Below the pieces are notes generated by a model. It was not told the DNA's origin. It ran no database searches and was given only the letters and a program-made list of their open reading frames with translations. A stretch of DNA of 64,000 bases from an uncultured Candidatus Saccharibacteria bacterium (lineage in GTDB: Bacteria > Patescibacteriota > CPR2 > UBA1875 > CAIMLA01). The stretch covers positions 91,464-155,463 of the forward strand of contig CAZXMN010000001.1 in NCBI GenBank assembly GCA_964641375.1, read 5' to 3'. Shown here piece by piece: positions 7,581 through 58,658 of this stretch (positions within the stretch are counted from its first letter, which is position 1; every line of letters starts with the position of its first letter). Position numbers and translations under genes: made by a program.

Positions 7581-7743
7581 TGTTCACCTTTTTTAACACA
7601 ATAAAATATATTTCGACAGATAGACAGTTTCCATTTCTAGACTATTCTATCCCCCGACGCGTGCTTGTTTATACTTAATTAACGCATGAAATATTATATA
7701 GAAATTCAGAGAGAATGTCAACGATTTTGTGTGTAAAACGTAA

Positions 7744-7775
7744 GAGGACCGACTACCCGTAGGTAATTGGTCCTC
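7744..7775 (-). terminator. GC-rich stem-loop immediately 3-prime of the island A ORF; candidate intrinsic terminator
   Basis: GAGGACC...GGTCCTC 7-bp outer stem with an inner CTAC/GTAG stem. On the minus strand it is followed by TTACGTTTT. Confidence 0.45.
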
Positions 7776-7803
7776 AGAACGTCGAAAGTGGTACTTACAG
7801 AAG

Positions 7804-8169
7804 TTACTTGATCTCTTCGTCCGGAACGAACATCGTGATCGCGACGTTGGCCAGCCGCTTGTGCTGGCAGTCGTATTCGTTCGCGACGAAGTCGTAGATC
7901 GGTCCGATCCCCTTCTTGAGAGGCTGGATCGATACGCCGTAACCGCCCTTCATGCCCACCACGCGAGCTTGACCAGGTTCCTCCATGAAACCATGGTCCA
8001 GAAGCCATGCTGTGCCATGCTCGGTGAGCTCCTGACGGAACTTCTCACCGTTCTTGTCGTCGCGCACCGCATCGGTCTCGATGCAAGTGTCGCCGATCTT
8101 GCTCTCGACGCCTGAGCTTTCGAGCTCGGCCCCAAGCGCACGGATGGTTCTCTCATTGAGATCAGGCAT
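7804..8169 (-). CDS. Hypothetical 121-aa protein in a GC-rich cassette inserted between rplC and rpsJ (island A)
   Basis: ATG start at 8169 with GGGGG about 12 nt upstream; stop at 7804 followed by a hairpin. The amino-acid composition looks protein-like, and no family is recognised. Local GC is about 55-59% against low-40s % flanks. The antisense frames look like junk. Confidence 0.5.
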   Translation of the reverse strand: MPDLNERTIRALGAELESSGVESKIGDTCIETDAVRDDKNGEKFRQELTEHGTAWLLDHGFMEEPGQARVVGMKGGYGVSIQPLKKGIGPIYDFVANEYDCQHKRLANVAITMFVPDEEIK

Positions 8170-8275
8170 TACCTGTTGTGCCCCCTTTTCGATTGTCGAC
8201 GTTCATGTCTACTCTTGTAGACACTAAAATATAACATTTTTATGTCTATTTGTCAATATAAAGTAAGTAGATACC

Positions 8276-8302
8276 AAAAGAGCCCCTTTCGGGGCTCTTT
8301 TA
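8276..8302 (-). terminator. Intrinsic terminator downstream of rpsJ (bidirectional hairpin)
   Basis: AGAGCCCC-tttc-GGGGCTCT stem-loop flanked by A-run and T-run. On the minus strand it follows the rpsJ stop and is followed by TTTTGG. Confidence 0.6.
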
Positions 8303-8318
8303 TCTAGCCTTACGGCTA

Positions 8319-8639
8319 TTACATCTTGATTTCGATATCTACACCGGCTGGTAGTGAAAGACTCATGAGTGAATCCACAGTCTTGGCAGAGAAATCTGTG
8401 ATGTCGATTAGTCTCTTGTGCACTCTCATTTCGAATTGCTCACGTGAGTTCTTGTCAATGAAGCTTGCGCGCTGTACAGTAATCGGCGTGCGATCAGTAG
8501 GAAGTGGGATTGGACCCGCTACCTTGGCACCGCTGCGGACTGCTGTTTCGATAATCTGAGCCGTGGACTGATCGATAATCTTGTTATCGTAAGCCTTGAG
8601 CTTAATGCGGATTCTTTGTTTGTCTTTAGTTTCAGCCAT
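8319..8639 (-). CDS. rpsJ: 30S ribosomal protein S10
   Basis: 106 aa [21 protein letters not shown]...[10 protein letters not shown], the S10 family. Confidence 0.94.
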
Positions 8640-8658
8640 AGTTTCTTTCTAAATCCGA

Positions 8659-9834
8659 TTATTTATTGATTTTGGTTACTGCACCAGCACCAACTGTACG
8701 GCCACCTTCACGAATAGCGAAGCGAAGACCTTCTTCGATAGCGATTGGCTGAATAAGTTTAACCTTCATTTTGACGTCATCACCAGGCATAACCATTTCG
8801 CCGTCAAATTCGATTTCGCCAGTTACGTCAGTCGTACGGATGTAGAACTGAGGCTTATAGCCCTTGAAGAAAGGCGTATGACGACCACCCTCGTCCTTGG
8901 TCAAGACATAGACTTGAGCGTCGAACTCGGTGTGAGGTGTGATAGAGCCTGGCTTAGCCAGAACCATACCACGTTCAATGTCGGCTTTTTCAATACCGCG
9001 GAGTAACAGACCAGCATTGTCGCCAGCTTGACCTTGCTCAAGTTGTTTCTTGAACATTTCAATACCGGTAACGACCGTCTTGCGAGTAGGTTTAATACCA
9101 ACAATTTCAACTTCATCGTTAAGTTTCACAGTACCACGAGCGATAGCGCCGGTAGCAACCGTTCCACGTCCCTTGATGCTGAAAACGTCTTCAACAGGCA
9201 TAAGGAATGGCTTGTCGATGTCGCGAACTGGATCTGGAATATAGTTATCAAGTGCGTCCATAAGTTCTGTGATGGCACCAACATACTTCTCGTCACCTTC
9301 AAGAGCCTTGAGAGCTGAACCACGAATAATAGGAGTGTTATCTCCGTCAAATTCGTATTTAGTCAAAAGCTCACGAATTTCCATCTCAACGAGATCAAGC
9401 ATTTCAGCATCATCAACCATATCAACTTTGTTCATGAAAACAACGATTTTTGGTACACCAACTTGCTTAGCGAGTAGGATGTGCTCACGAGTCTGAGGCA
9501 TAGGACCGTCAGTGGCAGCAACTACAAGAATAGCGCCGTCCATCTGAGCAGCACCGGTAATCATGTTTTTGACGTAGTCAGCATGTCCTGGGCAGTCGAC
9601 ATGGGCGTAGTGACGCTTCTCTGTCTCATACTCAGAGTGGTGAGTAGCGATGGTAATACCGCGCTCTCTCTCTTCTGGAGCGTTGTCAATTTCGTCAAAC
9701 TTCTCAACCTTAGCCATACCTTTCTTGCCCTGAACAGCAAGAATAGCAGCGGTTAGAGTCGTTTTACCATGGTCAACGTGTCCAATTGTACCGACGTTTA
9801 CATGGGGTTTTGTTCTCTGATAAACTTCAGCCAT
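8659..9834 (-). CDS. tuf: Elongation factor Tu
   Basis: [31 protein letters not shown]...; G-domain motifs [14 protein letters not shown] and NKVD. The likely ATG is at 9834; the track ORF is extended upstream. Confidence 0.95.
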
Positions 9835-9927
9835 TTTGTTCCCTTCTTTTATCTTTTTAACTTTTCTTTGACAATCCAAACCCTCCACACGCTTGGCGCG
9901 GAGAAAATGTATTTAGTTTGCCTACGA

Positions 9928-9956
9928 ATTCTACTATAAATTACTACTTTGTGCAA
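9928..9956 (-). promoter_or_regulatory. Candidate sigma70-type promoter for tuf (TTGCAC-N17-TAGAAT on the minus strand)
   Basis: -35 at 9951-9956 and -10 at 9928-9933 with a 17-bp spacer, about 90 nt upstream of the tuf ATG. Confidence 0.4.
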
Positions 9957-10012
9957 TAGTTTTGATAAACGAAAAGGCCACGTACCCGCCTAGTCGTCTG
10001 CTTTCACAGAAC

Positions 10013-10033
10013 TTGCGTGTTCGTGACCCTACT
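10013..10033. repeat. 21-bp direct repeat copy 1 (ttgcgtgttcgtgaccctact)
   Basis: Matches 10241-10261 at 20 of 21 positions. Lies just 3-prime of small ORF1 and overlaps its stop. Confidence 0.8.
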
Positions 10034-10217
10034 GGTTGCTCTCGGAGCCAGAGATGGCTTCGTCGTAACGACGAAGATTCTCCTTACGATCGTGATCCTC
10101 CTCTGCCCGCCGACGACCTTCAGTGAGACCGGTGCGGAAAACCGTTCCGACAAGAACGAATACGAGGAGTACCAGCGCCAGAATCGAGAAGACTATCGCC
10201 CAAACTGCAAGACTCAC
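10029..10217 (-). CDS. Small single-pass membrane peptide 1 (62 aa, GTG start) in GC-rich island B
   Basis: MSLAVWAIVFSILALVLLVFVLVG then a charged tail. The N-terminal WAIV motif is shared with peptide 3. GAGGGGGG lies upstream. Confidence 0.45.
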   Translation of the reverse strand: MSLAVWAIVFSILALVLLVFVLVGTVFRTGLTEGRRRAEEDHDRKENLRRYDEAISGSESNQ

Positions 10218-10240
10218 AGAACTACCCCCCTCGAGAAAAA

Positions 10241-10261
10241 TTGCGTGTTCGTGGCCCTACT
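10241..10261. repeat. 21-bp direct repeat copy 2 (ttgcgtgttcgtggccctact)
   Basis: 20/21 identical to copy 1. Lies just 3-prime of small ORF2. Confidence 0.8.
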
Positions 10262-10416
10262 CAGTCGTCATGGGAGTAGCTGAGTTTGACCTCTTCCTCG
10301 GCGTTGAACCTCCTGACTCTCTTAGAGAAGATCACCAAAATGTTCACGGCGAGGTAGACCAAGAGTCCGATGATTACCGCTAAAACCTCATAAATGAAAC
10401 AGCCAATCCGTTTCAT
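10261..10416 (-). CDS. Small single-pass membrane peptide 2 (51 aa) in island B
   Basis: ATG at 10416 preceded by AAATGGGAGGAACG (strong SD). MKRIGCFIYEVLAVIIGLLVYLAVNILVIF then a charged tail. Confidence 0.5.
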   Translation of the reverse strand: MKRIGCFIYEVLAVIIGLLVYLAVNILVIFSKRVRRFNAEEEVKLSYSHDD

Positions 10417-10468
10417 CGTTCCTCCCATTTCATTTAAAGAGTTCAGTAGCGGCTCTGCATTGAGGATT

Positions 10469-10582
10469 CTAATCCTCTTCGTAGAGATCCTGGTAAAGAT
10501 GAACAAGCGCCTCGAGGGCAACTAAGACCATGACAGCACCTGCGGCGATTACCACGACGATAGCCCATCCCCACCAAGGCAT
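10469..10582 (-). CDS. Small single-pass membrane peptide 3 (37 aa) in island B
   Basis: ATG at 10582 preceded by GGGGGAATC; MPWWGWAIVVVIAAGAVMVLVALEALVHLYQDLYEED. Too short for the ORF track. Paralogous to peptide 1 through the WAIV motif. Confidence 0.45.
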   Translation of the reverse strand: MPWWGWAIVVVIAAGAVMVLVALEALVHLYQDLYEED

Positions 10583-10642
10583 GATTCCCCCAGTTTTCTC
10601 AGGTACGCGCCGCCAGGCGCGAACACTTGGCTTTGTGCCGTG

Positions 10643-10671
10643 ATTATAATGCAGAAATGAATTATTTGCAA
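10643..10671 (-). promoter_or_regulatory. Candidate near-consensus promoter (TTGCAA-N17-TATAAT) reading into island B
   Basis: -35 at 10666-10671 and -10 at 10643-10648 on the minus strand with a 17-bp spacer. Immediately downstream of the fusA terminator. A CGCGCC/GGCGCG hairpin lies in the leader. Confidence 0.5.
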
Positions 10672-10675
10672 TAAT

Positions 10676-10700
10676 AAAAGAGGCCTGGAAGGCCTCTTTT
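10676..10700 (-). terminator. Intrinsic terminator downstream of fusA
   Basis: AAAAGAGGCC-tgga-aGGCCTCTTTT hairpin with T-run. Confidence 0.6.
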
Positions 10701-10729
10701 ATTTGAACAAATTATTTATTCAATAATTA

Positions 10730-12820
10730 TTACTCTGCCTGTTTCTTGCCACGTTTGGCAATAATTTCAACCGCAACGTTACCAGGAACTTCCTCGTAAT
10801 GATCAAATTCCATGGTACTAGTACCACGACCTTGGGTCATAGAACGAAGGTTCGTTGCATAACCAAACATTTCGGCTAGTGGCACGAATGCGTCCACAAT
10901 TTTGGCATTACCACGATCGGACATTTGTTGGATGCGACCACGTTTCGAGTTCAAATCGCCCATAATATCACCCATGTATTCCTCTGGAACAGTAACTTCA
11001 ACTTTCATGATAGGCTCAAGTATAATAGGAGTCGCTTTACGGACACCTTCTTGTACAGCCATGGAACCGGCGATTTTGAAGGCCATTTCATTCGAGTCAA
11101 CTTCATGGAAAGAGCCATCATAAAGCGTGACTTTGACGTCAACAACCGGATAACCAGCAATGACACCGTTATCAAGCGCCTCTTTGACACCGTTTTGAAC
11201 TGGATTGATGTATTCCTTCGGAATTGCGCCACCAACGATCTTGTTGATGAATTCGAAACCAGCGCCCTGTTCGTTTGGTTCTACTTCAAGCCAAACATGA
11301 CCATATTGACCACGACCACCTGATTGACGGATGAACTTACCTTCTTGTTTGACACTTGATTTGATAGTCTCGCGATACGCAACCTGAGGGCGTCCGACAT
11401 TGGCCTCAACCTTGAATTCACGTTTCATACGGTCAACGATAATATCGAGATGAAGTTCGCCCATACCGGCAATAATAGTTTGGCCGGTTTCCTCGTCAGA
11501 ATGAACTCGGAAAGTTGGATCTTCTTCAGCCAGTCTAGAGAGTGCGATACCCATTTTCTCTTGATCAGCCTTGGTCTTTGGCTCGATAGCCACCTGGATA
11601 ACCGGTTCTGGGAAAGTAATGTTTTCTAGAAGAACTGGATGTGCAGGATCACAAATCGTATTACCAGTTAAAGTATTTTTGAGACCTACTGCAGCAGCAA
11701 TCTCGCCCGCATACACTTCACTCACCTCTTCACGAGTATTGGCATGCATACGAACGATACGTCCGATACGCTCTTTCTCACCTGAAGCTACATTCAAAAC
11801 ATAACTACCAGAAGTGAGTTTACCGCGATAAACACGAAGGAAAGCCAGTTTACCGACGAACGGATCAGCAGCAATTTTGAAAACAAGACCGCAGAATGGA
11901 CCTTCGTCAGATGTTTCAACATCAACTTCTTCACCTGTCTTTGGATCCTCACCCTTTGCAGGTGGAACTTCTAGCGGACTTGGCAGATAATCAATCACGG
12001 CGTCAAGCATCGGCTGGACACCTTTATTCTTGAGTGCGGTACCGGCAAAAACACCAACAATATCACCCTTAATAGTAGCCGTACGCATAGCAGCTTTGAG
12101 TTCACCGACACTAGGCTCAACGCCCTCGAAGAATTTCTCTAATAGTGCGTCGTCGGTTTCGGAAATTTTTTCTACCATCACAGCACGGAATTCTTTGGCC
12201 TTATCTAGCATATCAGCAGGGACTTCAGCAATATGCTGTTCCTTGCCCATATCTTCATTACCGTAGTTAATTGACTTCATTTCCATGAGGTCAATAACGC
12301 CGGAAAAACCGGATTCCATACCGATAGGCAGCTGCATTGCTACAGCGTTAGCTCCAAGACGGTCTTTGATAGATTCAAGTGACATATAGAAATCAGCACC
12401 GATAGCATCGAGCTTGTTGACAAAAGCAATACGTGGAACGTTATATTTATCAGCTTGACGCCAAACAGTCTCCGACTGTGGTTCAACACCGTTTTTACCG
12501 TCAAAGACCACTACAGCGCCATCAAGTACACGAAGAGAACGCTCAACCTCAACTGTGAAGTCTACGTGTCCTGGTGTATCAATAATGTTGATGCGATGAT
12601 CATGCCAGAAACAGGTTGTAGCAGCAGACGTGATAGTGATACCACGTTCTTGCTCTTGCTCCATCCAGTCCATAGTGGCAGCGCCTTCATGCACTTCACC
12701 AATTTTGTGAGTACGTCCGGTGTAGTAAAGGATACGCTCAGTGACCGTCGTTTTACCGGCGTCAATGTGAGCAGCAATTCCAATGTTACGCGTCTTGTCT
12801 AGTGAATATTCTCTAGGCAT
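10730..12820 (-). CDS. fusA: Elongation factor G
   Basis: 696 aa [28 protein letters not shown]..., EF-G domain order. Confidence 0.95.
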
Positions 12821-12836
12821 ATATCCCCTCTTTTAT

Positions 12837-13313
12837 TTAGTATCTTGCAAAATGAGCGAAGGCTTTATTGGCCTCGGCCATCTTGTGAGTATCTTCACGC
12901 TTCTTGATAGCTGTGCCAACGTTGTTGTATGCATCCACAATCTCAGTAGCTAAAGCTTTGTCGAAGGACATCCCTTTGCGTGAGCGAGCAGCATCACGAA
13001 GCCACATGAAAGCGTAATGGAGACGTCTGTCGCCTTTCACTTCCATTGGTACTTGGTAAGTCGCGCCACCAATACGGCGGGATTTAACCTGTACAACAGG
13101 TGAAATGTTCTTGATAGCGGTTTCGAAAACTTCGAGCCCTGGCTTCTGGGTCTTGTTGCCAGCCTCTTCGATAGCTCCGTAAACGAGTTTCTGAGCTAAG
13201 CTCTTTTTGCCATCAAGCATAACTTTGTTGATAAACTTAGCCACAAGAATGCTGTGATACTGGGCATCTGGCTTTAGTATTCTTTTTTCTACTTTTCTTG
13301 GATCTCTAGGCAT
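12837..13313 (-). CDS. rpsG: 30S ribosomal protein S7
   Basis: 158 aa ORF matching the S7 family in the str operon. Confidence 0.93.
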   Translation of the reverse strand: MPRDPRKVEKRILKPDAQYHSILVAKFINKVMLDGKKSLAQKLVYGAIEEAGNKTQKPGLEVFETAIKNISPVVQVKSRRIGGATYQVPMEVKGDRRLHYAFMWLRDAARSRKGMSFDKALATEIVDAYNNVGTAIKKREDTHKMAEANKAFAHFARY

Positions 13314-13323
13314 TTACTGCTCC

Positions 13324-13731
13324 TTATGCTTTCTTAGCGCCGTATTTACTACGACCTTGTTTGCGATTAGTAACCCCAGCAGCATCCAAGGTTCCTCTAA
13401 CGATATGATAACGTACACCTGGTAAGTCCTTTACGCGTCCGCCGCGAATCATGACCACACTATGCTCTTGCAAATTGTGACCAACACCGGGGATGTAAGC
13501 CGTAACTTCCATCTGGTTAGTAAGGCGTACACGAGCGATTTTACGTAAAGCCGAGTTTGGTTTCTTCGGGGTAGTCGTTGTAACTTTGACACATACTCCC
13601 CTTTTCTGAGGCGATGAATCTAGAGTGGCTCTATTCTTGAGCGCGTTAAAACCGCGTCCAAGAGCCGGCGACTTCGACTTTGAAACTTTACTTTTCCTTG
13701 GCTTACGAATTAATTGATTTATTGTTGGCAT
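13324..13731 (-). CDS. rpsL: 30S ribosomal protein S12
   Basis: 135 aa [16 protein letters not shown]...[10 protein letters not shown], the S12 signature. Confidence 0.95.
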
Positions 13732-13765
13732 TTTTCTCCTTGAAAATCTAATAGATTTTATCAGA

Positions 13766-17524: not shown

Positions 17525-17525
17525 T

Positions 17526-35084: not shown

Positions 35085-35780
35085 TTATTCTTCTTCTTTT
35101 TCCGGTTCTACCGTTTCTGTGTTTTCTTCCACTTCGGCACCTTCACCATCTTTACCGTGCTCAAGGTCATTTTCTGCTTTATCAATGCCTTCTGCCACTT
35201 CTTCCTCTTGAATTTCTTGATGATCACTCTCAGCTTCGTCAGGAGTCACGATATCCTCTGCATCAGCCTCTTTGTTCTCGGCTTTTGCGATTTCGTCTAT
35301 AGAAACTTCTTTTGTTTCGATCTCGTTGTCTTTGATTTCAGTTGCATCAAGCTCGGTAATTTCAGCATCTAAGTCTTCGGTCGCTGGAGCTAAATCCTCA
35401 GGTTTGAGTTCTTCTTCTTTCACATTGACAGCGAGTGAATCAAACCTCTGGTCCTTAAGCTTAGCAGCTTTACCACGTAGATCACGAAGATATGTCAGAT
35501 AAGCGCGGCGGACTTCAGCTCTTTTGCGAATTTCAATTTTCGCAAGCTTTGGCGACTGGATAAGAAAAGTACGCTCAACACCAATGCCATAAGAAATCTT
35601 ACGAACTGTGAAGGTTTGCTGGACACCGCTACCTTTGACACGGATTACTACGCCTTCAAAAACTTGGATACGTTCTTTGCTACCTTCAATAATTTTAGTA
35701 TGTACACGAACAGTGTCACCAGGTTTTAGATCTGGGACGTTCTTTAACTGTTTATCTGTCATGTCGTCAATTGCTTTCAT
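35085..35780 (-). CDS. rplS: 50S ribosomal protein L19 with a long acidic C-terminal extension
   Basis: The N-terminal ~115 aa match the L19 family. They are followed by ~115 aa rich in Glu/Asp. Confidence 0.88.
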
Positions 35781-35905
35781 CTTTTCTCCTGTAACACGCG
35801 AGGAATATTATAGCGGATTTAAACATCTTCGTCAACCAATAAATACGTAAAAGGCGCGTTCCACCTTGCTTTTATACATTGGCATAACGCGCCTTGTTCA
35901 CCTTC

Positions 35906-35942
35906 GGGGCTCCGCACCGTTTGCGCAGCGGTGCGGAGCCCC
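35906..35942. other. Perfect 14-bp GC-rich inverted repeat (stem-loop) at the 3-prime edge of island C
   Basis: GGGGCTCCGCACCG-tttgcgcag-CGGTGCGGAGCCCC. A second hairpin, CGTCC-acgcggccgcg-GGACG, lies at 35951-35971. No U-tract follows either. Confidence 0.7.
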
Positions 35943-36007
35943 TAGGGTATCGTCCACGCGGCCGCGGGACGAAGAGTTGTCAAACTAGGAAGCCAAACGA
36001 GCTGGAC

Positions 36008-36448
36008 CTACCTCATGTCGTTGGCTCGTTCTTGGTCCTCGACGAGCATCCTGGGGTCCAAACCTCGCTGGACTACTGTCGAAGAGTGAGGACACGGGTT
36101 GCACCCCATCGTACTCGTACGCCAGGATCGAACGTCCTTCAGCACCTCATCCCGAACCGGACGAGGAATGCTGTAGGGATTGCCAGGGCTCTCAGCCAGG
36201 AAGGCCTCGAGATGCCGCATAACCGTACAGACCGTAGGGTCGTCACAGTTGTGCTGGGCGACGCCATGGAGCCTATCCCTCAGAGCGAGGATCTGTGCAG
36301 CTGCGTGGACTTCCCCACTGCCGGTAAAGTGCCGACCAGCGGTTTCAACCTCCACTACAGCTTGAGAAATCCTCTCCTCGGTCGGATGTGAAAGAACCTC
36401 CTTGTGGATCTTCTGAAGATCCAGAACCCCTGTAACGGACTCGCTCAT
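36008..36448 (-). CDS. Hypothetical 146-aa protein (island C, downstream gene of a two-gene cassette)
   Basis: ATG at 36448 with GAAGGG SD. His/Cys-rich. GC about 58%. No family recognised. Confidence 0.45.
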   Translation of the reverse strand: MSESVTGVLDLQKIHKEVLSHPTEERISQAVVEVETAGRHFTGSGEVHAAAQILALRDRLHGVAQHNCDDPTVCTVMRHLEAFLAESPGNPYSIPRPVRDEVLKDVRSWRTSTMGCNPCPHSSTVVQRGLDPRMLVEDQERANDMR

Positions 36449-36478
36449 CTTTGTTGCCCTTCTTCTGTGATTGCGGCG

Positions 36479-36688
36479 CTAGGCCGCGGGCTGCGGCTGG
36501 GCGGAACGGACTGAGATGAGACTCCTACTCGCTTTGAGCTTGGTGGTGCCTTCCCCTTGGGCGAGGACGTTTCCCTTGGTGTCCTTCGCCATAGCGACGA
36601 CGTTGCCACGACTGACACGATTGTAGCCGTGACTACGTGTATCCCTCACGAACACGATCCGAACTGGGGTCTTACCTATCATGGCCAT
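36479..36688 (-). CDS. Hypothetical 69-aa protein (island C, upstream gene)
   Basis: ATG at 36688 preceded by GGGGGAAAGAGT; 30-nt gap to the 146-aa ORF. A candidate TTGCTA-N17-TATGAT promoter lies upstream in AT-rich DNA. Confidence 0.45.
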   Translation of the reverse strand: MAMIGKTPVRIVFVRDTRSHGYNRVSRGNVVAMAKDTKGNVLAQGEGTTKLKASRSLISVRSAQPQPAA

Positions 36689-36858
36689 ACTCTTTCCCCC
36701 AAAGCCTCGAAGTGACCTTTCACTAAGACACTTCTTGGTTAGGGACTGCCGTGCGCCATACGCTCACCTTCTTCTGCTAGATTGACTGACAAAGAACAAT
36801 ACAAAAAATATCATACAATAATTATTCGCTTTTAGCAAGCCTTTTATATCAAAAAAAT

Positions 36859-48297: not shown

Positions 48298-48313
48298 CTA
48301 GTTGATTTGTTCT

Positions 48314-49222: not shown

Positions 49223-49232
49223 GTGCTACCTA

Positions 49233-49781: not shown

Positions 49782-49795
49782 GGGACTCCTTTCGA

Positions 49796-50245
49796 TTATT
49801 TCTTTGGTATTTTTATTACTTGTCCAATTTGTAAATCTTCGCTTGTTGAATTGTTGTATTGCATGAGCTCTGCTGAGGAAAGATTATTAGCGTTTGCAAT
49901 TGAACTGTAGGTATCTCCGGCTACAACAGTATACGTATCAGATGTTGTGGTTGCGGTCGTAGAAGGAGTTGTCGCCGTTGGTGCAGGAGTAGTAGCTGCC
50001 GGAGTAGTGTCAGTAGCTGGAGTTTGAACCGCAGAATCAGGTCTTGATTCTATCTTTTCGTCAGCAGACTTCTGCTGAACCTTGTCAGGTTTGAAAATAA
50101 GTTCATAGCTAGCAACACCGATGGTGCCAAAGACAAGCACAATCGCGATCAGTGCCGTCACAGTTCCTAGAATATTTTTTTTGCTTCCGCTCTCTTTGAT
50201 TTCTTTCTTGAATTCGTCGGAAAGCTGACTACCGTCTTTTTTCAT
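49796..50245 (-). CDS. LysM domain protein, membrane anchored, with a Thr/Pro-rich linker
   Basis: C-terminal LysM (YTVVAGDTYSSIANANNLSSAELMQYN...GQVIKIP). The likely start is MKKDGSQL at 50245; the track ORF runs into the tRNA genes. Confidence 0.75.
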   Translation of the reverse strand: MKKDGSQLSDEFKKEIKESGSKKNILGTVTALIAIVLVFGTIGVASYELIFKPDKVQQKSADEKIESRPDSAVQTPATDTTPAATTPAPTATTPSTTATTTSDTYTVVAGDTYSSIANANNLSSAELMQYNNSTSEDLQIGQVIKIPKK

Positions 50246-50303
50246 AACAAGAATCATTATACACCTAAAAATAAAAAAATCATCAACGTTCTGATGATTT
50301 TTT

Positions 50304-50388
50304 TGGTGCCCGGGGCGGGACTTGAACCCGCAAGACCGAAGCCAACGGATTTTAAGTCCGTCGCGTATACCAATTCCGCCACCCGGGC
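50304..50388 (-). tRNA. tRNA-Leu (anticodon TAA), type II
   Basis: Acceptor GCCCGGG/CCCGGGC, T-arm GCGGG-TTCAAGT-CCCGC, anticodon loop CTTAAAA, CCA encoded. Confidence 0.85.
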
Positions 50389-50395
50389 GTATAAG

Positions 50396-50469
50396 TGGAG
50401 GCCTGACCCGGAATTGAACCGGGGTACGCGGTTTTGCAGACCGCTGCGTAACCACTCCGCCATCAGGCC
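50396..50469 (-). tRNA. tRNA-Cys (anticodon GCA)
   Basis: Hand-folded cloverleaf with anticodon stem-loop GCGGT-CTGCAAA-ACCGC and T-loop TTCAATT. Confidence 0.85.
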
Positions 50470-50490
50470 ACGTCTGAGGAAAAGATAAAA

Positions 50491-50565
50491 TGGAGCGGGA
50501 GACGGGGATCGAACCCGCGACCTCAACCTTGGCAAGGTTGCGCTCTACCGCTAAGCTACTCCCGC
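50491..50565 (-). tRNA. tRNA-Gly (anticodon GCC)
   Basis: Anticodon stem-loop CAACC-TTGCCAA-GGTTG, T-loop TTCGATC, CCA encoded. Confidence 0.85.
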
Positions 50566-50568
50566 AAG

Positions 50569-50644
<76 letters not shown>

Positions 50645-50657
50645 ATGATTATTTTTT

Positions 50658-50734
50658 TGGTGGGCGCCAAGGGATTCGAACCCCTGACCCTCTCGGTGTA
50701 AACGAGATGCTCTAACCAGCTGAGCTAGGCGCCC
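50658..50734 (-). tRNA. tRNA-Val (anticodon TAC)
   Basis: GGGCGCCTAGCTCAGCTGGTTAGAGC, anticodon loop TTTACAC, T-loop TTCGAAT. Confidence 0.85.
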
Positions 50735-50966
50735 ACGTCAGCGCAAGCTAACGTGTTACACAGAACCGCCAATAGGCGTCTGTTTCACACTTTCGCTATG
50801 CCTCCTCTCCAGTCAAAATCGACAGATTTTGCCTGAGGGGAAACGGAACGAAGTGGTCCCTGCCGAGAAAATTTGTAATTTTCTCGGAAAAAGGAACATC
50901 TACGAAGGTGCAGAGCGATTGGCTTTAGCCAACTCATGAAGACCGAAGTAGGATGCGACGACGCAG

Positions 50967-51053
50967 TGGTGCGGACGAGAGGACTTGAACCTCCAAGGCC
51001 TTGCGGCCACTAGCCCCTCATGCTAGCGCGTATACCAATTCCGCCACGCCCGC
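50967..51053 (-). tRNA. tRNA-Leu (anticodon GAG), type II
   Basis: Shares the D-arm TGGCGGAATTGGTATACGCG with the other two Leu tRNAs. Anticodon loop ATGAGGG, T-arm GGAGG-TTCAAGT-CCTCT. Confidence 0.8.
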
Positions 51054-51114
51054 TAATAAATACCAGTTTCGCAAGGGAAATTATACGTTATTTTGGGTCG
51101 ATAGTCAATCGAAT

Positions 51115-52875
51115 CTATCTGGTTTGTTTAGACTTAATGTACCAGTCATAAATATTATTTAACATATCATCTGACTGAGATATTCGGACTTGTGTTGAAC
51201 CACTTACCTCCTTGGATAAGGCTGAGATATGAAGGGGAGTATATAGGAATAATGCCGGTTGTTGCTCTATAATAACTTGCTGAATTTCCTTGAATCTTTC
51301 CGAACGATAAGCCGGGTCGCTACTACGACGTACCTGCTCAAGCAGTTTATCAACTTTTTTATCACTGAAACCAGTTAAGTTCAAACCCGGATCAGCAATC
51401 TGAGAAGAATGCCAAAAGCTGTAGAGATCTTCATCTATGCCTACATTCTGGCCAATAAGTAACATATCAAAGTTGCGCGGTCGAATATAATTCGCGCTAA
51501 TTTCATTGATATCTGCTGGAATTAAATCGACTCCAACTCCAATCGCTGCAAATTGTTTTTTAATGATGCTAGCAACGTCAGTATTCTCTGTATTGTTTAT
51601 ATATACGAGTCTAAAACTCATAACTTTTCCGTCCTTACGACGAATACCATCTTTTCCTTTTATCCACCCGGCCTTCTCGAGAGCATCGCTAGCCGTGGCC
51701 GGATTATAATCTATCCCCTTCGCAGTTGGATCATAACCAGAACGGCCTGGCATGATGGGAACTGAAATCTCTTTCGCATTACCACCTAGTGCACCATTAA
51801 TAATATCAGGCCTATTTATCGCTGCCGCTAAGTCTTTTCGGATATCCACATTGGAGAGTAGATCATTCTTGTAATTGAAATTTAATACTTCGTACTGTGG
51901 TAAATAGTTCTTGATTAAATTTAGGTTGGCAAGTTTGCTGACAGCAGTATTCTCATCTAACGGAACATCAGCAACACCACTAACTTGTCTGCTGGTTAGG
52001 CCTTTATATAGAGACTCTTGGTCACTGTAGAGAATCAAACGGACCTGATCGATATACGGCCGATGAATTGCAAAGTCTTTATTTGATTCTAATACTACTT
52101 CTGTTTGAGTCCCAAGCTGGTCAAAACGGACGAATTTATAAGGTCCAGTACCGATCGGGTTCGTATTAAACTCAGCTAGTTTAATATTCTTGGCATCTAT
52201 ACCTTGGAGCAAATGCGCCGGCAGGATGGCCTGGTTCGCAACATCAAGAAATTCAGGATACGCATTCGGAAGCGTGAATTTAACTTCATAATCATTAACC
52301 TTTGTGACAGTAACACCGCGCCAAACCTGTGAGAGACTAGTTCTCGTATCTGGGTTCTGAATAAGGCTTATTGTGTAAACCACGTCATCCGCGGTAAATT
52401 TCTGGCCATCCTGCCATTTCACGTTGCTCTTTAGCTTAAAATCATAGGTAAGTTTATCGTCTGAAACTGTCCAACTAGAAGCGAGATCGGGTACATAATT
52501 CGTAGCCGAAACAGTTCTTGTCAGACCGGAGAATATTAGCTTATCTGTTTCATTTTCAGCATCACCCTGAATAAAAAGTGGATTCATCTTCTCGACAGTC
52601 CCAACAACGCCCTGGGAGTAACTACCACCGAAATCAGGAATATTTTTTACAAAATATGTTTGTAAATAATCAAAGCGTTGCACAAACATTGCCATAATGA
52701 CGACCGACAAAACAGAGCTGAAAAGCACAAGATTGCGAAGATGAACAATATCTGGAATTTTCTTGATATTGGCAAGTGTAAGATTACGCAAATCCTTGAG
52801 ATGAGTCTGACGAATATCGATTATTAACTTTTTTAGCTTCAAGCGAAACTTGATGCTAAGATTTTTTAGTTTCAT
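51115..52875 (-). CDS. ABC transporter substrate-binding protein, family 5 (peptide/nickel type), orphan
   Basis: 586 aa ORF with an N-terminal anchor and an SBP_bac_5-like sequence (VKWQDGQKFTADDVVYT). No permease or ATPase genes are adjacent. Confidence 0.75.
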   Translation of the reverse strand: MKLKNLSIKFRLKLKKLIIDIRQTHLKDLRNLTLANIKKIPDIVHLRNLVLFSSVLSVVIMAMFVQRFDYLQTYFVKNIPDFGGSYSQGVVGTVEKMNPLFIQGDAENETDKLIFSGLTRTVSATNYVPDLASSWTVSDDKLTYDFKLKSNVKWQDGQKFTADDVVYTISLIQNPDTRTSLSQVWRGVTVTKVNDYEVKFTLPNAYPEFLDVANQAILPAHLLQGIDAKNIKLAEFNTNPIGTGPYKFVRFDQLGTQTEVVLESNKDFAIHRPYIDQVRLILYSDQESLYKGLTSRQVSGVADVPLDENTAVSKLANLNLIKNYLPQYEVLNFNYKNDLLSNVDIRKDLAAAINRPDIINGALGGNAKEISVPIMPGRSGYDPTAKGIDYNPATASDALEKAGWIKGKDGIRRKDGKVMSFRLVYINNTENTDVASIIKKQFAAIGVGVDLIPADINEISANYIRPRNFDMLLIGQNVGIDEDLYSFWHSSQIADPGLNLTGFSDKKVDKLLEQVRRSSDPAYRSERFKEIQQVIIEQQPALFLYTPLHISALSKEVSGSTQVRISQSDDMLNNIYDWYIKSKQTR

Positions 52876-53091
52876 TTAGACAAATAAGATTAGCATAGCG
52901 CTGATACATAGAACAGAGGCAGAAACAATAGTGAATATAACAAGAAATTTCTCTGCTCCCCTTTTGGTCATATAGGATACATCAGAACCGCCAAAAACAC
53001 CGGAAAGACCGGCTCCTTTCTGCTGCAATATTATCGCAAGGACCGTCAGAATAGATGAGATAATTATAATTATATTTAATACATTTTTCAT
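52876..53091 (-). CDS. secG: Preprotein translocase subunit SecG
   Basis: 71 aa ORF with two TM segments flanking LQQKGAGLSGVFGG, the SecG signature. Confidence 0.8.
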   Translation of the reverse strand: MKNVLNIIIIISSILTVLAIILQQKGAGLSGVFGGSDVSYMTKRGAEKFLVIFTIVSASVLCISAMLILFV

Positions 53092-53140
53092 TGCTTAGAT
53101 ATTTTAACAGAAAAAATGCTTTTCGTAAACTTTTAAGACC

Positions 53141-54082
53141 TTATTTTCTGTTTAATTGTTTAGATTTACCAATAATCCGCCAGGCTTCTGCTCCGAGTTT
53201 CACTGAATCATGATAGAGAGAGTTCGTTTCATCTACCAAATCTGCGTAGAGCAACCGATAACGGTTATTCCCACTGCAATCTGGTCTAACCGGTGATACA
53301 AAACCGTCACCAGAACCGTCTGGGAAGTTACTGCTATTTAGAAGAACTGAGTCGAAATCGACTGAATATTTCTCCAAAGTCTTCAAATGATCACCAGCAG
53401 AATAATTATCAGTCTCTCCTCTCTCGGTCGAAACGTTGCAAATATAAACTTTGAGTGCCTTAGCTTCGGCGAGTGATTTGGACATTTGGGACTGTAAAAA
53501 ATTTGGAATTATGCTTGTATACAGACTGCCAGGACCAATAAAAATAACATCTGATGAGTCAATTGCAGCAATAACCCTCGGATTTGTTTTTACTTTATTA
53601 GTAAGCGAAATCTCTTTGATTTTATGCAAATAACCATATTTCGTAATCTTCGATTCGCCAGTGATTAACTTCCCGTTATCGAACTCGGCCATCAAGTTAA
53701 CATCATCAAAAGTTGCCGGTAAAACCTGGCCTTTTATATTTAGGAGCGCCGAAATCTCCTCAATGGCAAGCTCGAAATTACCAGTCATGTCTTTCATTGC
53801 GCTGATTAGGAGATTTCCCAAGCTATGGCCAGCTAAACCGAGTCCGGTCTTGAAACGATATTCAAAAAGATCAGTAAGAGCAGTTTCGTTCTCCGAAAGT
53901 GCAGCGATGCATTTGCGAATGTCTCCTGGTGGCAACAGATTAAAGTCTTTCCTCAGACGGCCGCTGCTAGCCCCATCATCAGTCATTGTCACAATCGCGG
54001 TTATATCTATCGGATAATCACGAAGGCCACGCAGAAGAGTCGCTAAACCTGAACCGCCCCCGATTACAACTACTTTTTTCAT
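53141..54082 (-). CDS. YvcK/UPF0052 family (CofD-like) gluconeogenesis factor
   Basis: 313 aa ORF, MKKVVVIGGGSGLATLLRGL...ITAIVTMTDDGASSGRLR, the YvcK family. Confidence 0.8.
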   Translation of the reverse strand: MKKVVVIGGGSGLATLLRGLRDYPIDITAIVTMTDDGASSGRLRKDFNLLPPGDIRKCIAALSENETALTDLFEYRFKTGLGLAGHSLGNLLISAMKDMTGNFELAIEEISALLNIKGQVLPATFDDVNLMAEFDNGKLITGESKITKYGYLHKIKEISLTNKVKTNPRVIAAIDSSDVIFIGPGSLYTSIIPNFLQSQMSKSLAEAKALKVYICNVSTERGETDNYSAGDHLKTLEKYSVDFDSVLLNSSNFPDGSGDGFVSPVRPDCSGNNRYRLLYADLVDETNSLYHDSVKLGAEAWRIIGKSKQLNRK

Positions 54083-55518
54083 AAATCTTCTTTTATCCTT
54101 CTCGCGGTCTTTTCACCGACAAGCATTATAAGATCATTGATCTCCGCCGATCTTATTTTATCAATACTACCAAATTTGCTAATAAGCTTTTTCTTTGTTT
54201 TCGGCCCGATACCAACAATATTATCTAGAGTTGAGCTAGTTAGTTCTCGAGAGCGCAAATTTCGATGATAGGTAATAGCAAACCTATGAGCTTCATCTCG
54301 GATTCTCTGTACTAGGAAAAAGGCTTCAGAATTTGTTGGCAAAGTAACTATTTTAAAATTACCGCTTTTGTCGATTGTGACAAGTTCTTCATATCGTTTA
54401 GCAAGTCCCACAAATTTCGTTGGTAAATTTAGCGGTCCAACTATCTCCATGACCGAGGAGAGTTGTCCTTTGCCACCATCGATGATTACTAAATCAGGAA
54501 TTTTGGCAAAAGAATCATCTTTTTTCGTTTGGGTAGATAGCCTTTTAAATCTTCTTTCGGCGATTTCTTGGTGCATGGCATAATCATCAATTCGTTTCAC
54601 GGTTTTGATTTCGAAACGACGATAATCATTTTTTTTCGGGATCCCTTTTTCGAAGACAACCATCGAACCGACCGCGGCACGGCCAAAAATATTTGAAATA
54701 TCATAACACTCAATTCGTTCCGGAATGTTCGGTAAATCCAATGCTATTTGGAGATCAACTAAAGCTTTGTCCAAACGTAATTCCCGCTTTTCTTCAATCA
54801 CGTGTTCAAATCTAATCCGTTCGAGCGCCCCGAGACGATCACGAATCTCGGCGGCTTTCTCATACTTTCTTTCCCTAGAAAAGGCTTTCATTTGCCTCGT
54901 CAAATCTTTCATTATGAGTTCCTTTTGCCCACCGAGAAAATTTACAAGTCCTCGAATGTTTGCCTGATACTCTGCAGGTTTAATGTACTTACTTCCATGC
55001 CCTTTGCAAAGACCTAGATGGTAATAGAGACAGACATTATCAGGCCCTAGACTACAGGTACAATACGGAAAAATCTTCCTTAAGTATTTGAGGCTGTTAC
55101 GAACAGCTGCAGTATCTATAAAAGGCCCTAGATATTCGTCTTTGCTGTCAACAACTTGCCTGACCACACTAATTCTAGGATAATCTTCTTTTGTGATTTT
55201 GATATAGCAATAATTCTTGTCATCTTTCAGACTGATGTTGAACTTTGGTTTATAACGTTTGATTAGCTCTGACTCAAGTACCAATGCCTCGATCTCTGAT
55301 CCAGCAATAATCCATTCTAAGTCTGCTATATTTCTCACGAGTTCAATTGTCTTGATATCGTGATCGCCAACAAAATAAGAACTAACCCTATTCTTTAAGT
55401 TTATAGCCTTGCCAACATAAATAATTCGACCTTTGTCGTTTCTATAAATATAAACGCCAGGGTCTTTGGGTAGTTTCTTTAGTTTTTCTTGAACAACTTC
55501 TTTGTTCAGAATATTCAT
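54079..55518 (-). CDS. uvrC: Excinuclease ABC subunit C (short form)
   Basis: N-terminal GIY-YIG (GVYIYRNDKGRIIYVGKAINLKNR), an endonuclease V-like domain and a C-terminal HhH. ATG at 55518. Confidence 0.85.
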   Translation of the reverse strand: MNILNKEVVQEKLKKLPKDPGVYIYRNDKGRIIYVGKAINLKNRVSSYFVGDHDIKTIELVRNIADLEWIIAGSEIEALVLESELIKRYKPKFNISLKDDKNYCYIKITKEDYPRISVVRQVVDSKDEYLGPFIDTAAVRNSLKYLRKIFPYCTCSLGPDNVCLYYHLGLCKGHGSKYIKPAEYQANIRGLVNFLGGQKELIMKDLTRQMKAFSRERKYEKAAEIRDRLGALERIRFEHVIEEKRELRLDKALVDLQIALDLPNIPERIECYDISNIFGRAAVGSMVVFEKGIPKKNDYRRFEIKTVKRIDDYAMHQEIAERRFKRLSTQTKKDDSFAKIPDLVIIDGGKGQLSSVMEIVGPLNLPTKFVGLAKRYEELVTIDKSGNFKIVTLPTNSEAFFLVQRIRDEAHRFAITYHRNLRSRELTSSTLDNIVGIGPKTKKKLISKFGSIDKIRSAEINDLIMLVGEKTARRIKEDL

Positions 55519-55539
55519 AAGCTTATTATATCACTTTCT

Positions 55540-55572
55540 CAGCTTGGGGTGCTACACTCGCACCCCAAGCTG
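55540..55572. other. Perfect 13-bp inverted repeat (CAGCTTGGGGTGC-tacactc-GCACCCCAAGCTG) between uvrC and uvrA
   Basis: Stem-loop overlapping the stop codon of the 89-aa island D ORF, about 25 nt upstream of the uvrC -10 box. Confidence 0.7.
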
Positions 55573-55821
55573 TTGCAGTTCTTCCGTGGTCCTCGCGATT
55601 CGCTCCAAAACGATTCGCTCTGTTTCCACAAGTTGTGGTAGCTTCGCAATTCTCGCTGCTCTCATCGCTTCCAACACTCTTGCGGTGCTATCAAATCCTG
55701 CCGTCCTATTTGCTTCTACTGCCTCTTTATTCTTGAACAACTTACCGAGCCAGGCTCTGTCGTACTCAAGAGAACGCAAGAGCAATCCAATCCGAGCAAG
55801 ATCGTTTGCCACGACTGCCAC
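55552..55821 (-). CDS. Hypothetical 89-aa helical protein (island D), GTG start
   Basis: ORF in a moderately GC-enriched spacer between uvrA and uvrC. Ala/Arg/Leu/Glu-rich. The SD is weak. Its coding status is uncertain. Confidence 0.3.
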   Translation of the reverse strand: MAVVANDLARIGLLLRSLEYDRAWLGKLFKNKEAVEANRTAGFDSTARVLEAMRAARIAKLPQLVETERIVLERIARTTEELQQLGVRV

Positions 55822-55847
55822 CTCCCAAGGTGACGTGCTACGAGGTG

Positions 55848-58658
55848 CTATTTAAGGACTTTGGCCAAGTATTCACCGGTATATGAACCTGGTTTTTTCG
55901 CTACTTGTTCAGGTGTACCTACGGCGACGACTTCACCACCACGGTTACCACCTTCGGGGCCAAGGTCGATTATCCAATCTGCGCATTTGATTACTTCAAG
56001 GTTATGTTCGATGACAAGTACAGTATTTCCAGCATCGACAAGCTGATTTAGAACCCCCATTAATCGGTTTACGTCATCAAAATGTAATCCCGTTGTTGGT
56101 TCATCCAGAATATAAAGTGTCTTACCTGTAGAACGTCTCGAGAGCTCGCTGGCAAGCTTAACGCGTTGAGCTTCGCCGCCGGAAAGGGTTGTGGCTGGCT
56201 GTCCGAGACGGATATAGCCAAGTCCAACTTCAACTAAAGTGACTAATTTACGTTTGATTTGAGGAATATTTTGGAAAAAATCATAAGCTTCATCTACTGT
56301 CATATCGAGAACGTCAGAAATATTTTTGCCCTTATAATGAATTTCTAGGGCCTCTTTATTATACCTTTTTCCACCACACTCTTCACAAGTTACGTAAACG
56401 TCAGGGAGAAAATGCATCTCTATTTTGAGTATGCCCTCGCCTCGGCATGATTCACAGCGTCCACCCTTCACATTGAAACTGAAACGACCTTGTTTGTAAC
56501 CGCGGATTCTAGCTTCTGGTGTCCCGGCGAAAAGGTCTCGAATATCCGTAAACACACCGGTATAAGTTGCTGGGTTTGAACGTGGTGTTCGTCCAATTGG
56601 TGATTGATCAATATCAATAACTTTATCTAAATATTTAAGCCCTTGGATTTCCATATGCTTGCCAGCCGGCTCTTGCGCGTGATGAAAAACCTGTGAAAGT
56701 CTTTTCGCAAGAATGTCATTTACAAGACTAGATTTACCAGAGCCAGAAACCCCCGTAACAAGCACCAATCTACCAAGAGGGATGGATACGGTTACATTCT
56801 TTAAATTATTTTCGGCAGCACCAACAACAGTGATTTCTTTACCATTACCTGATCTGCGCTTTGCGGGTGTTTGAATCACCTTGGTGCCAGAGAGATATTG
56901 ACCTGTTAAGGAATTCTTATTGGCTTTGATTTGGGACGGCGTCCCTTCTGCGATGATGTGTCCGCCGTGTTCGCCTGCCCCTGGGCCGACATCAATAATC
57001 CAATCAGCTTCGTTCATCGTATCTTCATCATGCTCAACAACAATTACGGAATTACCAAGATCACGAAGATTCTTGAGTGTTTCAATCAAACGATAATTAT
57101 CACGCTGATGTAGACCAATTGATGGTTCGTCTAGAATATAAATAACACCCATTAGCGAAGAACCAATCTGAGTAGCAAGCCGAATTCTCTGAGCTTCGCC
57201 ACCAGAAAGTGTATTTGCCGCACGGTCAAGCGTCAGGTAATTTAAACCAACGTTTATAAGAAATCCAAGTCTTTCCTTGATTTCTTTCAAGATTTGTTTC
57301 GATATTTTAGCGTCACGTTCGTTAAGTTTAAGATTATCGAATAGCTGGATCGTTTCGTCTATCGGTATGATTGTTATCTCATAGATAGATTTATTATCTA
57401 CCGTAACAGCTAAAAACTCTGGTTTTAATCTTTTCCCTTTACACTTTGGACAAATGCGAAGAGCCATGTATTTCTCAATTTCCTTACGGACATAATCCGA
57501 ATCTGTTTCGTGATATCGGCGTTCCAGGTTTGCTATTACGCCCTCGTAGGTCGCTTCATAAGTTCTACTCCCCATGTGAATTGTGAAAGTCTCATCGCCA
57601 GTACCGTACATAATGATATCAATTGCCTTTTCACTGAGGTTTTCTACCGGTTCATTGACCGAGAAATTATACTTTTCACCAACCACCTCAAGAACTTTGG
57701 AGTACCAACTCATTCGGGCCGTCGTACGACTCCAAGGGCGAATAGCGCCCTCCGCAATGGAAAGCCTCTGATTCGGCATTACGAGTGTCGGATCTATTTC
57801 TAGCTTAGTTCCGAGGCCGGTACAAACCGGACACGCTCCGTGAGGGCTATTGAAAGAGAATGATCGCGGAGAAATTTCCGGTAAACTGATGTGGCAGTTC
57901 GGACAAGCGAAATTTTGTGAGAAAACCTGCTCTTCGTTCTTATCATTGTCGAGATAAATCATCACTCCTTCGCCCAAATTCAAAGCGTTTTCAACAGATT
58001 CTGTAAGTCTTTTTTCAATCTCTGGTTCAACAATGAGGCGGTCAATTACAGCTTCAACAGTGTGTTTTTTATTTTTATCAAGTGAGAGTTCTTCGTCAAC
58101 ATCATAAATCTTGCCATCTACCCGCGCACGCGCATAACCGGCTTTTTTGAGACCTTCAAAAACGTATTTATGAACGCCTTTCTTATCTTTGATGATAGGA
58201 GCAAGAATCATAAAGCGTGTATCAGCTGGCATAGACATAATCTGTTCGACGATTTGTGGGATAGTTTGTTTGGCAATTACCATGCCGCAAACCGGACAAT
58301 GAGGCACGCCGACACGGGCAAAAAGCAATCTGAGATAATCATAAATCTCAGTTACGGTACCGACTGTCGAACGTGGGTTTCTCGTTGTTGATTTCTGATC
58401 AATAGAAATAGCCGGGGATAGACCTTCGATTTGGTCCACATCCGGTTTTTCCATAAGTCCCAAGAATTGTCTAGCATAACTAGACAAACTTTCGACATAA
58501 CGACGCTGCCCTTCAGCATAAATCGTATCAAATGCGAGAGAAGATTTACCGGATCCTGAGAGACCAGTAATGACTACTAATTTGTCACGAGGAATAGTGA
58601 CATCGACATTTTTCAGATTATGTTCGCGAGCACCACGGATAACGATATTTTCGCTCAT
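55848..58658 (-). CDS. uvrA: Excinuclease ABC subunit A
   Basis: 936 aa ORF with two ABC ATPase modules ([20 protein letters not shown]), LSGGE signatures and zinc fingers. Confidence 0.95.

Follow-up and report, generated by a model that had tools for sequence, protein, structure and literature searches.

We analysed a 64-kb stretch of a contig from an uncultured Candidatus Saccharibacteria bacterium (hereafter the window), in which small open reading frames (ORFs) lie in GC-rich islands between core housekeeping genes. Island 1 separates rpsJ from rplC, island 2 fusA from tuf, island 3 dnaE from rplS, and island 4 uvrA from uvrC. These eight flanking genes, which the original prediction had named correctly from the DNA alone, were verified, also by Pfam labels on identical public contigs. 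The same prediction explained the islands as insertions brought in by a single acquisition mechanism. We arrive at a different explanation, to which we attach moderate confidence: the islands would be part of a class of small accessory genes found across the clade, GC-rich, fast-evolving, restricted to the lineage and vertically inherited, which lie at the boundaries of core transcription units in one Saccharibacteria lineage and undergo some turnover. The window was placed in the Saccharibacteria by a genome scan with RplC, in which the best species representative among the matches listed is 64% identical; the window's own genome and genus-level relatives are absent from these matches, which were used for spacer statistics. 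In a metagenome scan with RpsJ, L098 is the sole close locus among the matches listed (L numbers denote loci).

The GC content of the window is 43.1%, and its backbone genes have a GC content of 0.427±0.022 and a GC content at third codon positions (GC3) of 0.370±0.030 (34 genes of at least 200 amino acids (aa)). Calculated over 300-bp segments, GC content peaks at 0.60 in island 1 (7701-8250), 0.55 in island 2 (9951-10375) and 0.61 in island 3 (35776-36800). Few segments exceed 0.52; four of these are the islands, with island 4 (55551-55850) only at this threshold. Thus, the claim of four GC-rich islands stands for islands 1-3, which have a base composition and codon usage atypical of the genome (GC3 0.63-0.75 versus 0.37±0.03; ~0.66 in island 2), while island 4 has this property only mildly (~50% GC, GC3 0.51). 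Codons ending in C and codons ending in G are both enriched in the islands, which is not the case in ribosomal-protein genes or tuf, and the untranslated regions (UTRs) of the islands are also moderately GC-rich (0.45-0.62). The GC-normalised dinucleotide signature is ordinary for each island alone (z 0.1-1.5), but islands 1-3 pooled are an outlier (z 3.4) and, as described, their GC3 is atypical. A GC elevation that extends over the whole unit and over both types of codon, as in foreign DNA, together with the pooled signature, speaks for an ancient horizontal acquisition from high-GC donors (probably actinobacteria that host the epibiont, or phages of these hosts), in which amelioration is incomplete and nothing maintains a fading GC-richness. 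We regard this alternative as rather unlikely and return to it below. That the islands are co-oriented with their flanks, which had been taken as evidence, says nothing, as the minus strand holds almost all accepted genes of the window. Antisense ORFs within the islands were discarded as a by-product of A-poor third positions.

Islands 1-3 have a common layout: the terminator hairpin of the upstream gene is followed by a σ70-like promoter, one or more ORFs led by a Shine-Dalgarno (SD) sequence, a strong hairpin and the promoter of the downstream core gene. The promoter-like sites match the σ70 consensus at 9 to 11 of 12 positions. The promoter-like flanks, SD-led ORFs and 3' hairpins described in the original prediction are present at these three islands; island 4 has an SD sequence and a hairpin, but no promoter of its own was found. 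Six of the seven island proteins are gene calls in a public collection, where they form clusters of 1 or 2 members, and the exact ORF of island 4 is absent from this collection. The features of islands 1 and 3 are the following:

7581-7721, minus strand: promoter that belongs to rplC (TTGACA-17-TATAAT, 7693-7721), followed by its structured leader (7581-7692); the operon boundary hosting island 1.
7744-7775, minus strand: terminator-like hairpin of island 1 (GAGGACC...GGTCCTC) and then a T-rich tail; conserved in the relative L097.
7804-8169, minus strand: island 1 ORF of 121 aa, between rpsJ and rplC; GC 0.579, GC3 0.746.
8228-8256, minus strand: promoter-like site of island 1 (TTGACA-17-TATATT with TG upstream); 11/12 matches; conserved in L097.
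35848-35948, minus strand: 3' region of island 3; a hairpin of 20 bp (35900-35948) and another one that has a T-run (35848-35893) precede the rplS promoter (35807-35835).
36008-36448, minus strand: island 3 ORF 2 of 146 aa; GC 0.576, GC3 0.63.
36479-36688, minus strand: island 3 ORF 1 of 69 aa, basic; GC 0.59, GC3 0.70.
36810-36838, minus strand: promoter-like site of island 3 (TTGCTA-17-TATGAT); 9/12 matches.

Among 1.84 billion representatives, the 121-aa protein of island 1 has one real homologue (64% identical by phmmer, 61% in our own alignments), and this homologue, with a GC3 of 0.64, also sits between rpsJ and rplC, in L097. In the comparison of the two genes, the ratio of nonsynonymous to synonymous substitutions (dN/dS) is 0.15, and the differences by codon position are 0.22/0.22/0.50. 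The other matches to the 121-aa protein (P0015-P0018) are tandem-repeat proteins and were rejected. For the 146-aa protein of island 3, exactly two other clusters are found among 5.8 billion proteins, P0012 (73% identity) and P0013 (59%), and both lie at the same dnaE|rplS junction, behind a partner of 62-70 aa, in relatives L091-L096. The dN/dS of this gene is ~0.10-0.24 with an excess of third-position changes, and GC3 of the island 3 orthologues is 0.62-0.67 in L091 and L094, where the flanking genes have 0.27-0.50. The positional homologues of ORF 1 (62 and 70 aa in L091 and L094) are ~32% identical to the window's protein and 69% identical to each other. Distances at four-fold degenerate sites between the window, L091 and L094 are ~1.43-1.65 for the flanks and 0.97-1.34 for island 3, i.e. 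island 3 diverged alongside its flanks, with a GC content at these sites of 0.59-0.65 versus 0.34-0.38 in the flanks. Overall, the 121-aa family has two members and the 146-aa family three clusters, all in Saccharibacteria contexts. Although few relatives were sampled, every relative recovered for the junctions of islands 1 and 3 has the respective orthologues, which persist, still GC-rich, in relatives that are heavily diverged at silent sites (four-fold distance (d4) 0.7-1.65). On these sequence comparisons, the proteins of islands 1 and 3 are evidently under purifying selection and inherited vertically together with their flanks.

Several observations were made beside these two islands. In one population variant (L083, JGI sample 3300031711), an in-frame 45-bp deletion (window 8102-8144) drops residues 9-23 of the 121-aa protein; these residues form the low-confidence N-terminal segment of its structure model. 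A short hairpin (GTCTAC-loop-GTAGAC, 8207-8222) lies directly 3' of the island 1 promoter and is kept in L097 (~2898-2913) along with GAACGTCGACAAT after it; it may be a 5'-UTR regulatory element. At island 3, L094 has an additional gene for a 37-aa single-helix peptide (1520-1633, GC3 0.74) after its 154-aa gene, which resembles the island 2 peptides in type; at this position the window has hairpins only. The 146-aa protein is predicted to be all-helical and has four invariant cysteines (C68, C74, C116 and C119) as well as His66/His79; its AF2 model has a mean confidence (pLDDT) of 66 and its structural matches are generic. The candidate products of the islands are a small α/β protein, a Cys/His protein of helical type together with its basic partner, and several membrane peptides with a single pass.

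The rplC side of island 1 illustrates the type of site in which the islands lie. The rplC promoter-like site is a perfect match to the consensus. The leader, which has no Rfam match, is a conserved two-tier hairpin followed by a U-run, ~40 nt 5' of the start codon, and 11 of its 17 base pairs have compensatory changes in an alignment of nine Saccharibacteria loci (L001-L008 and L097); it looks like an attenuator-type ribosomal-protein leader. Because rplC has its own promoter and covarying leader, the spacers are probably true transcription-unit boundaries, at which an extra unit would break no operon. Among 80 loci fetched, the rpsJ|rplC spacer is 202-7641 bp in every locus that holds both genes. 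In the family-level relatives L001, L003, L004 and L006 it is 745-750 bp, compared to 738 bp in the window, and holds unrelated ORFs of 123-149 aa on the opposite strand, with GC content elevated in L003, L004 and L006 (0.55-0.57 versus 0.47-0.49) but not in L001 (0.49 versus 0.50). As kin of the 121-aa protein these ORFs were rejected, given an hhalign probability below 1% and their opposite strand. GC peaks in the rpsJ|rplC and fusA|tuf spacers occur in ~15-23% of all loci and are concentrated among closer relatives.

Islands 2 and 4 follow the same theme with much less constant content. Their features are the following:

9965-10028, minus strand: terminator-like long hairpin of island 2 with a U-run; the tuf promoter is next (9928-9955).
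10010-10261, minus strand: 24-nt direct repeat in two copies (10010-10033 and 10238-10261), 92% identical, each directly behind the stop codon of an ORF (c and b, respectively).
10029-10217, minus strand: island 2 ORF c of 62 aa, with a single hydrophobic helix and a charged tail.
10261-10416, minus strand: island 2 ORF b of 51 aa, with a single hydrophobic helix and a charged tail.
10469-10582, minus strand: island 2 ORF a of 37 aa, with a single hydrophobic helix and an acidic tail; a gene call in independent assemblies.
10643-10671, minus strand: promoter-like site of island 2 (TTGCAA-17-TATAAT); 10/12 matches; follows the fusA terminator hairpin (10656-10720).
55540-55572, minus strand: hairpin of island 4 with 13-bp arms, overlapping the ORF stop; compensatory changes among the window, L179 and L181.
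55552-55821, minus strand: island 4 ORF of 89 aa, with a GTG start 6 nt after GGGAGGTG, between uvrA and uvrC; GC 0.51, GC3 0.51.

At the fusA|tuf junction, which spans 101-6053 bp in the species-level loci holding both genes, the tuf promoter and leader are the sole part conserved with L097 and L098. FusA and Tuf of L097 are 99% and 97% identical to those of the window, yet L097 holds a different ORF of 57 aa, and L098 has two other transmembrane peptides; the contents are GC-rich in all three versions. We conclude from these alignments that island 2 keeps its regulatory frame, within which close relatives have unrelated ORFs. Matches of ORF c in Pfam and PHROGs are weak and driven by the transmembrane region. 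The 24-nt repeat suggests an internal duplication of an ORF module.

At island 4, the start region (…GGGAGG..GCAGTCGTGGCA…) and the hairpin are kept in L179, L181 and L186, where the ORF varies between 55 and 89 aa with a mostly unrelated body; L180 and L185 lack the element. The extended -10 element of uvrC (TGATATAAT, 55525-55533) lies immediately downstream of the hairpin, which is not followed by a T-run. By comparison with these relatives, the start region and hairpin have been retained while the ORF body diverged beyond recognition or was lost. The 5' coding end of uvrC (55483-55499) and the middle of the island 4 ORF (55727-55743) share a directly repeated sequence of 17 nt (AAGTTGTTCAAGAA[A/T]AA when read along the coding strand, with 16 of 17 positions identical); it is far above chance for a region of 421 bp and could be the remnant of a local duplication.

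These two islands bear most directly on the idea that the ORFs arose de novo, or evolve very rapidly, from GC-rich regulatory sequence at the boundaries such as terminators and leader hairpins. At island 4, an arm of the conserved hairpin encodes the C-terminus of the ORF, and an unrelated body between conserved ends is found in the window, L179, L181 and L186; at island 2, unrelated ORFs lie inside a conserved regulatory frame; and reading frames tend to stay open in GC-rich sequence, of which the long antisense frames are an example. By contrast, the 121-146-aa proteins of islands 1 and 3 have predicted folds, conserved orthologues and a dN/dS well below 1, and an origin from boundary sequence leaves unaccounted for the source of 400-1000 bp of GC-rich DNA in an AT-rich genome. 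We consider this scenario improbable for the islands as a whole; it concerns mainly island 4 and the island 2 peptides.

The junctions of the preferred explanation, i.e. vertically inherited accessory genes with some turnover, would be tolerated as sites of landing and retention. Such tolerance would follow from the fact that each downstream core gene has its own promoter or leader, as in the case of rplC. In the few relatives sampled, island 4 is absent in two and the content of island 2 is replaced, and this turnover at uvrA|uvrC and fusA|tuf implies that the sites are permissive. Moreover, the recurrent pattern is real and wider than originally described: relatives have small ORFs of high GC content at these junctions and also at a fifth one, uvrB|uvrA. 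Here, L178 (339-725) and L180 (660-959) hold a GC-rich ORF without known family (an ORFan) on the opposite strand, of 99-128 aa, with a GC3 of 0.69-0.72 and 74% identity to each other; the uvrB|uvrA spacer of the window is just 86 bp (58659-58744).

The occurrence of the islands in independent assemblies and in relatives argues strongly against the original view. Ten contigs of independent origin (JGI, ENA and Logan assemblies) contain the rpsJ-side region with islands 1 and 2 at 99.97-100% identity, and an assembly chimera is excluded for these two islands. Recent insertion through a single mobile-cassette or transformation mechanism, or a chimera with high-GC community DNA, would be in line with the architecture common to four sites and with the replaced fusA|tuf content between close relatives, and Saccharibacteria are naturally competent. 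However, islands 1 and 3 have orthologues at the same junctions in diverged relatives, and homologous or architecturally equivalent units occupy the positions of islands 1, 3 and 4 in relatives with near-saturated silent sites; island 4 is promoterless and only mildly raised in GC content. The original prediction had itself named presence at the same positions in all relatives as a ground for refutation, and for islands 1, 3 and 4 this is in part what is seen. No shared junction motif or terminal repeats above chance were found at the islands, and a regular-expression scan for the attC core pair (RYYYAAC / GTTRRRY) had no hit within 150 bp of any island. The annotated genes in and beside the islands are all core housekeeping genes, with no mobility genes among them, a statement limited to annotation since no search was aimed at recombinases. 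Consistent with the original description, flanking repeats do not exceed chance and no transposase or integrase gene is among the annotated genes, except that island 2 has the internal 24-nt direct repeat. This explanation is largely refuted and, taken as a whole, scarcely credible.

We also considered that the islands are structured non-coding RNAs and that the ORFs are by-products of their high GC content. RNA genes often form GC-rich segments in AT-rich genomes, and the window has an example in a cluster of six tRNA genes (Leu-TAA, Cys, Gly, Phe, Val and Leu-GAG; 50304-51053). The folding z-scores of the whole transcripts are -6.9 for island 1 and -4.9 for island 3; we discounted these values as inflated because shuffling mixes the AT-rich ends with the GC-rich core. 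For the ORFs alone, the mean is ~-1.7, and that of island 1 (-3.7) is outside the backbone range (-0.41±0.92 in 22 segments), while those of the others (-0.5 to -2.4) are ordinary. Against an RNA-only function, substitutions between orthologues are mostly at third positions, with a dN/dS of 0.1-0.25 and preserved frames and lengths, the deletion in the population variant is in frame, and the SD sequences are properly spaced. In a scan against Rfam 15, only tRNAs reach the gathering score, and there is no credible match in the islands even at E≤1. We therefore regard the non-coding alternative as very improbable. The tRNA cluster (50.3-51.05 kb), which adjoins no island, and a stretch within ligA account for the remaining GC peaks of the window; a mechanically called ORF of 219 aa (49796-50455) overlaps the first tRNAs of the cluster and is probably spurious.

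The persistent GC-richness is the one unexplained feature of the islands, and it is here that ancient acquisition has to be weighed. In addition to composition, this alternative has in its favor that the gene families are confined to one shallow clade, that junction content varies among relatives by presence, absence and replacement, and that for island 1 the divergence between the window and L097 (flank d4 0.69) is compatible with a donor GC3 of ~0.9-1.0. By contrast, the 121-aa and 146-aa proteins have no homologue outside the clade in collections of 1.84 and 5.8 billion proteins, respectively, in phage and plasmid records or in IMG/VR contigs. Searches of the island proteins with Pfam, PHROGs and PADLOC gave only transmembrane-region noise, and BFVD gave nothing usable. 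Applied to the four-fold distances with backbone frequencies, the F81 model predicts that ~0.8 substitutions per four-fold site per lineage leave ~33% of an initial GC excess, so that an ancestral GC3 of 1.0 would have decayed to ~0.57 and one of 0.85 to ~0.52. Island 3 has a GC3 of 0.63-0.65 in three lineages (d4 ~1.4-1.65, backbone GC3 0.27-0.50), i.e. above this neutral ceiling. Changes polarised among three taxa show no GC-to-AT excess beyond the prediction from saturation; because the parsimony used is itself biased by saturation, we use it solely for the absence of excess decay. Thus, the GC-richness is most likely maintained, because neutral AT-biased decay over the silent divergence observed should have largely erased it, and we loosely prefer maintenance to an amelioration that is simply slow. 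An ancient origin by import from a partner of high GC content is possible.

In the explanation that we prefer, the GC-richness would be old and roughly stationary, with a GC3 of ~0.63-0.75 versus 0.3-0.45 in the backbone of every relative, and would be held up by selection on transcripts or codons or by GC-biased repair, perhaps on top of an ancient foreign origin. In a stronger and tentative form, which we put forward as a speculation, a GC3 of ~0.65-0.75 would be actively held across the clade's flexible pool of junction genes, in genomes whose silent sites are at 0.3-0.45. One candidate cause would be selection on the transcripts for their stability, their structure or the rate at which they are translated. 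Others would be a GC-biased repair acting where spacers prone to recombination lie between ultra-conserved genes, or a codon usage adapted to an actinobacterial host of high GC content, in or on which the products or nucleic acids would act. If any such cause applied, composition would be the marker of a functionally distinct class of genes in an epibiotic bacterium of the candidate phyla radiation (CPR).

Several points weigh against vertical inheritance of a maintained, protein-coding gene class. The ORFs of island 2 and the window's ORF in island 4 have no detectable homologues, in searches less thorough than those made for the 121-aa and 146-aa proteins, and because of this their coding status rests on SD sites, hydrophobic-helix patterns and gene calls. 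Nor is vertical co-divergence uniform: the proportion of four-fold differences in island 1 (p 0.71, n=38) exceeds that of its flanks (0.43), and that in the uvrB|uvrA ORF is below its flanks (0.46 versus 0.65; as distances 0.74 versus 1.68). The amelioration argument is made from 35-67 four-fold sites per comparison, a simple model and near-saturated distances, and DNA from a donor with a very high GC3 acquired at the base of the clade is only modestly excluded. Similarly, the folding of the ORFs gives modest support for selection on RNA structure.

The genomes of CPR bacteria and Saccharibacteria are small and consist mostly of core genes, and their few lineage-specific genes are for this reason the best candidates for host interaction. 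In one environmental Saccharibacteria clade, such genes are recognisable from composition and position alone, as small GC-rich units with strong promoter-like sites at operon boundaries, and their long persistence makes it unlikely that they are transient foreign DNA. If their GC-richness is truly maintained against mutational decay, they offer a tractable case of selection or biased repair acting on composition in a reduced genome, and a simple screen for accessory genes in related metagenome-assembled genomes. If it merely reflects slow amelioration, the finding is an ordinary one of a handful of old ORFan islets.

Individual islands resemble several known systems in part. For instance, the small ORFs in series in island 2, each followed by an imperfect inverted repeat, are reminiscent of integron cassettes. 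However, attC cores are absent at the islands, each of islands 1-3 has a promoter-like site of its own, neither an integrase nor attI was found among the genes examined (not every ORF was scanned), and the islands are scattered over four junctions and do not form an array. The island 2 peptides of 37-62 aa also resemble the small hydrophobic peptides of type I toxin-antitoxin systems, and other small membrane proteins, in their single hydrophobic helix, charged tail, tandem modules and rapid turnover. Unlike in these systems, neither an antisense promoter nor an overlapping small RNA was detected: a consensus-based scan found no plus-strand promoter-like site within 9965-10642, no antitoxin RNA was found with Rfam, and there is no homology to a known toxin family. 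The island 4 ORF, which ends in a conserved hairpin with compensatory changes directly before the uvrC promoter element, has similarities to leader-peptide attenuators and ribosomal-protein leaders. By contrast to these, it is long (55-89 aa) and absent in some relatives, and neither an alternative pairing that would form an antiterminator nor a run of regulatory codons was identified. The 121-aa protein of island 1 can be compared to the Mog1/PsbP/DUF1795-like α/β fold, represented by the SciW chaperone of a type VI secretion system (6xrb) and Mog1 (1jhs), but is smaller than these domains, and its own model, from a two-sequence alignment, is of medium confidence only.

The closest parallel to the islands as a group would be genomic islets and ORFan accessory genes, which are usually ascribed to horizontal transfer. 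Like these, the islands are short, lineage-restricted, without known family and atypical in composition, are lodged between core genes, and vary at some sites by presence, absence or replacement. Unlike typical islets, they have no tRNA anchors or flanking repeats, mobility genes were not seen among the annotated neighbours (with no dedicated recombinase search), and no donor homologues were found for the 121-aa and 146-aa proteins. DNA gained by transfer is more often richer in AT than its host, while the islands are GC-richer than the genome in which they reside. Finally, islands 1 and 3 differ from islets in having syntenic orthologues that have remained un-ameliorated across near-saturated silent divergence.

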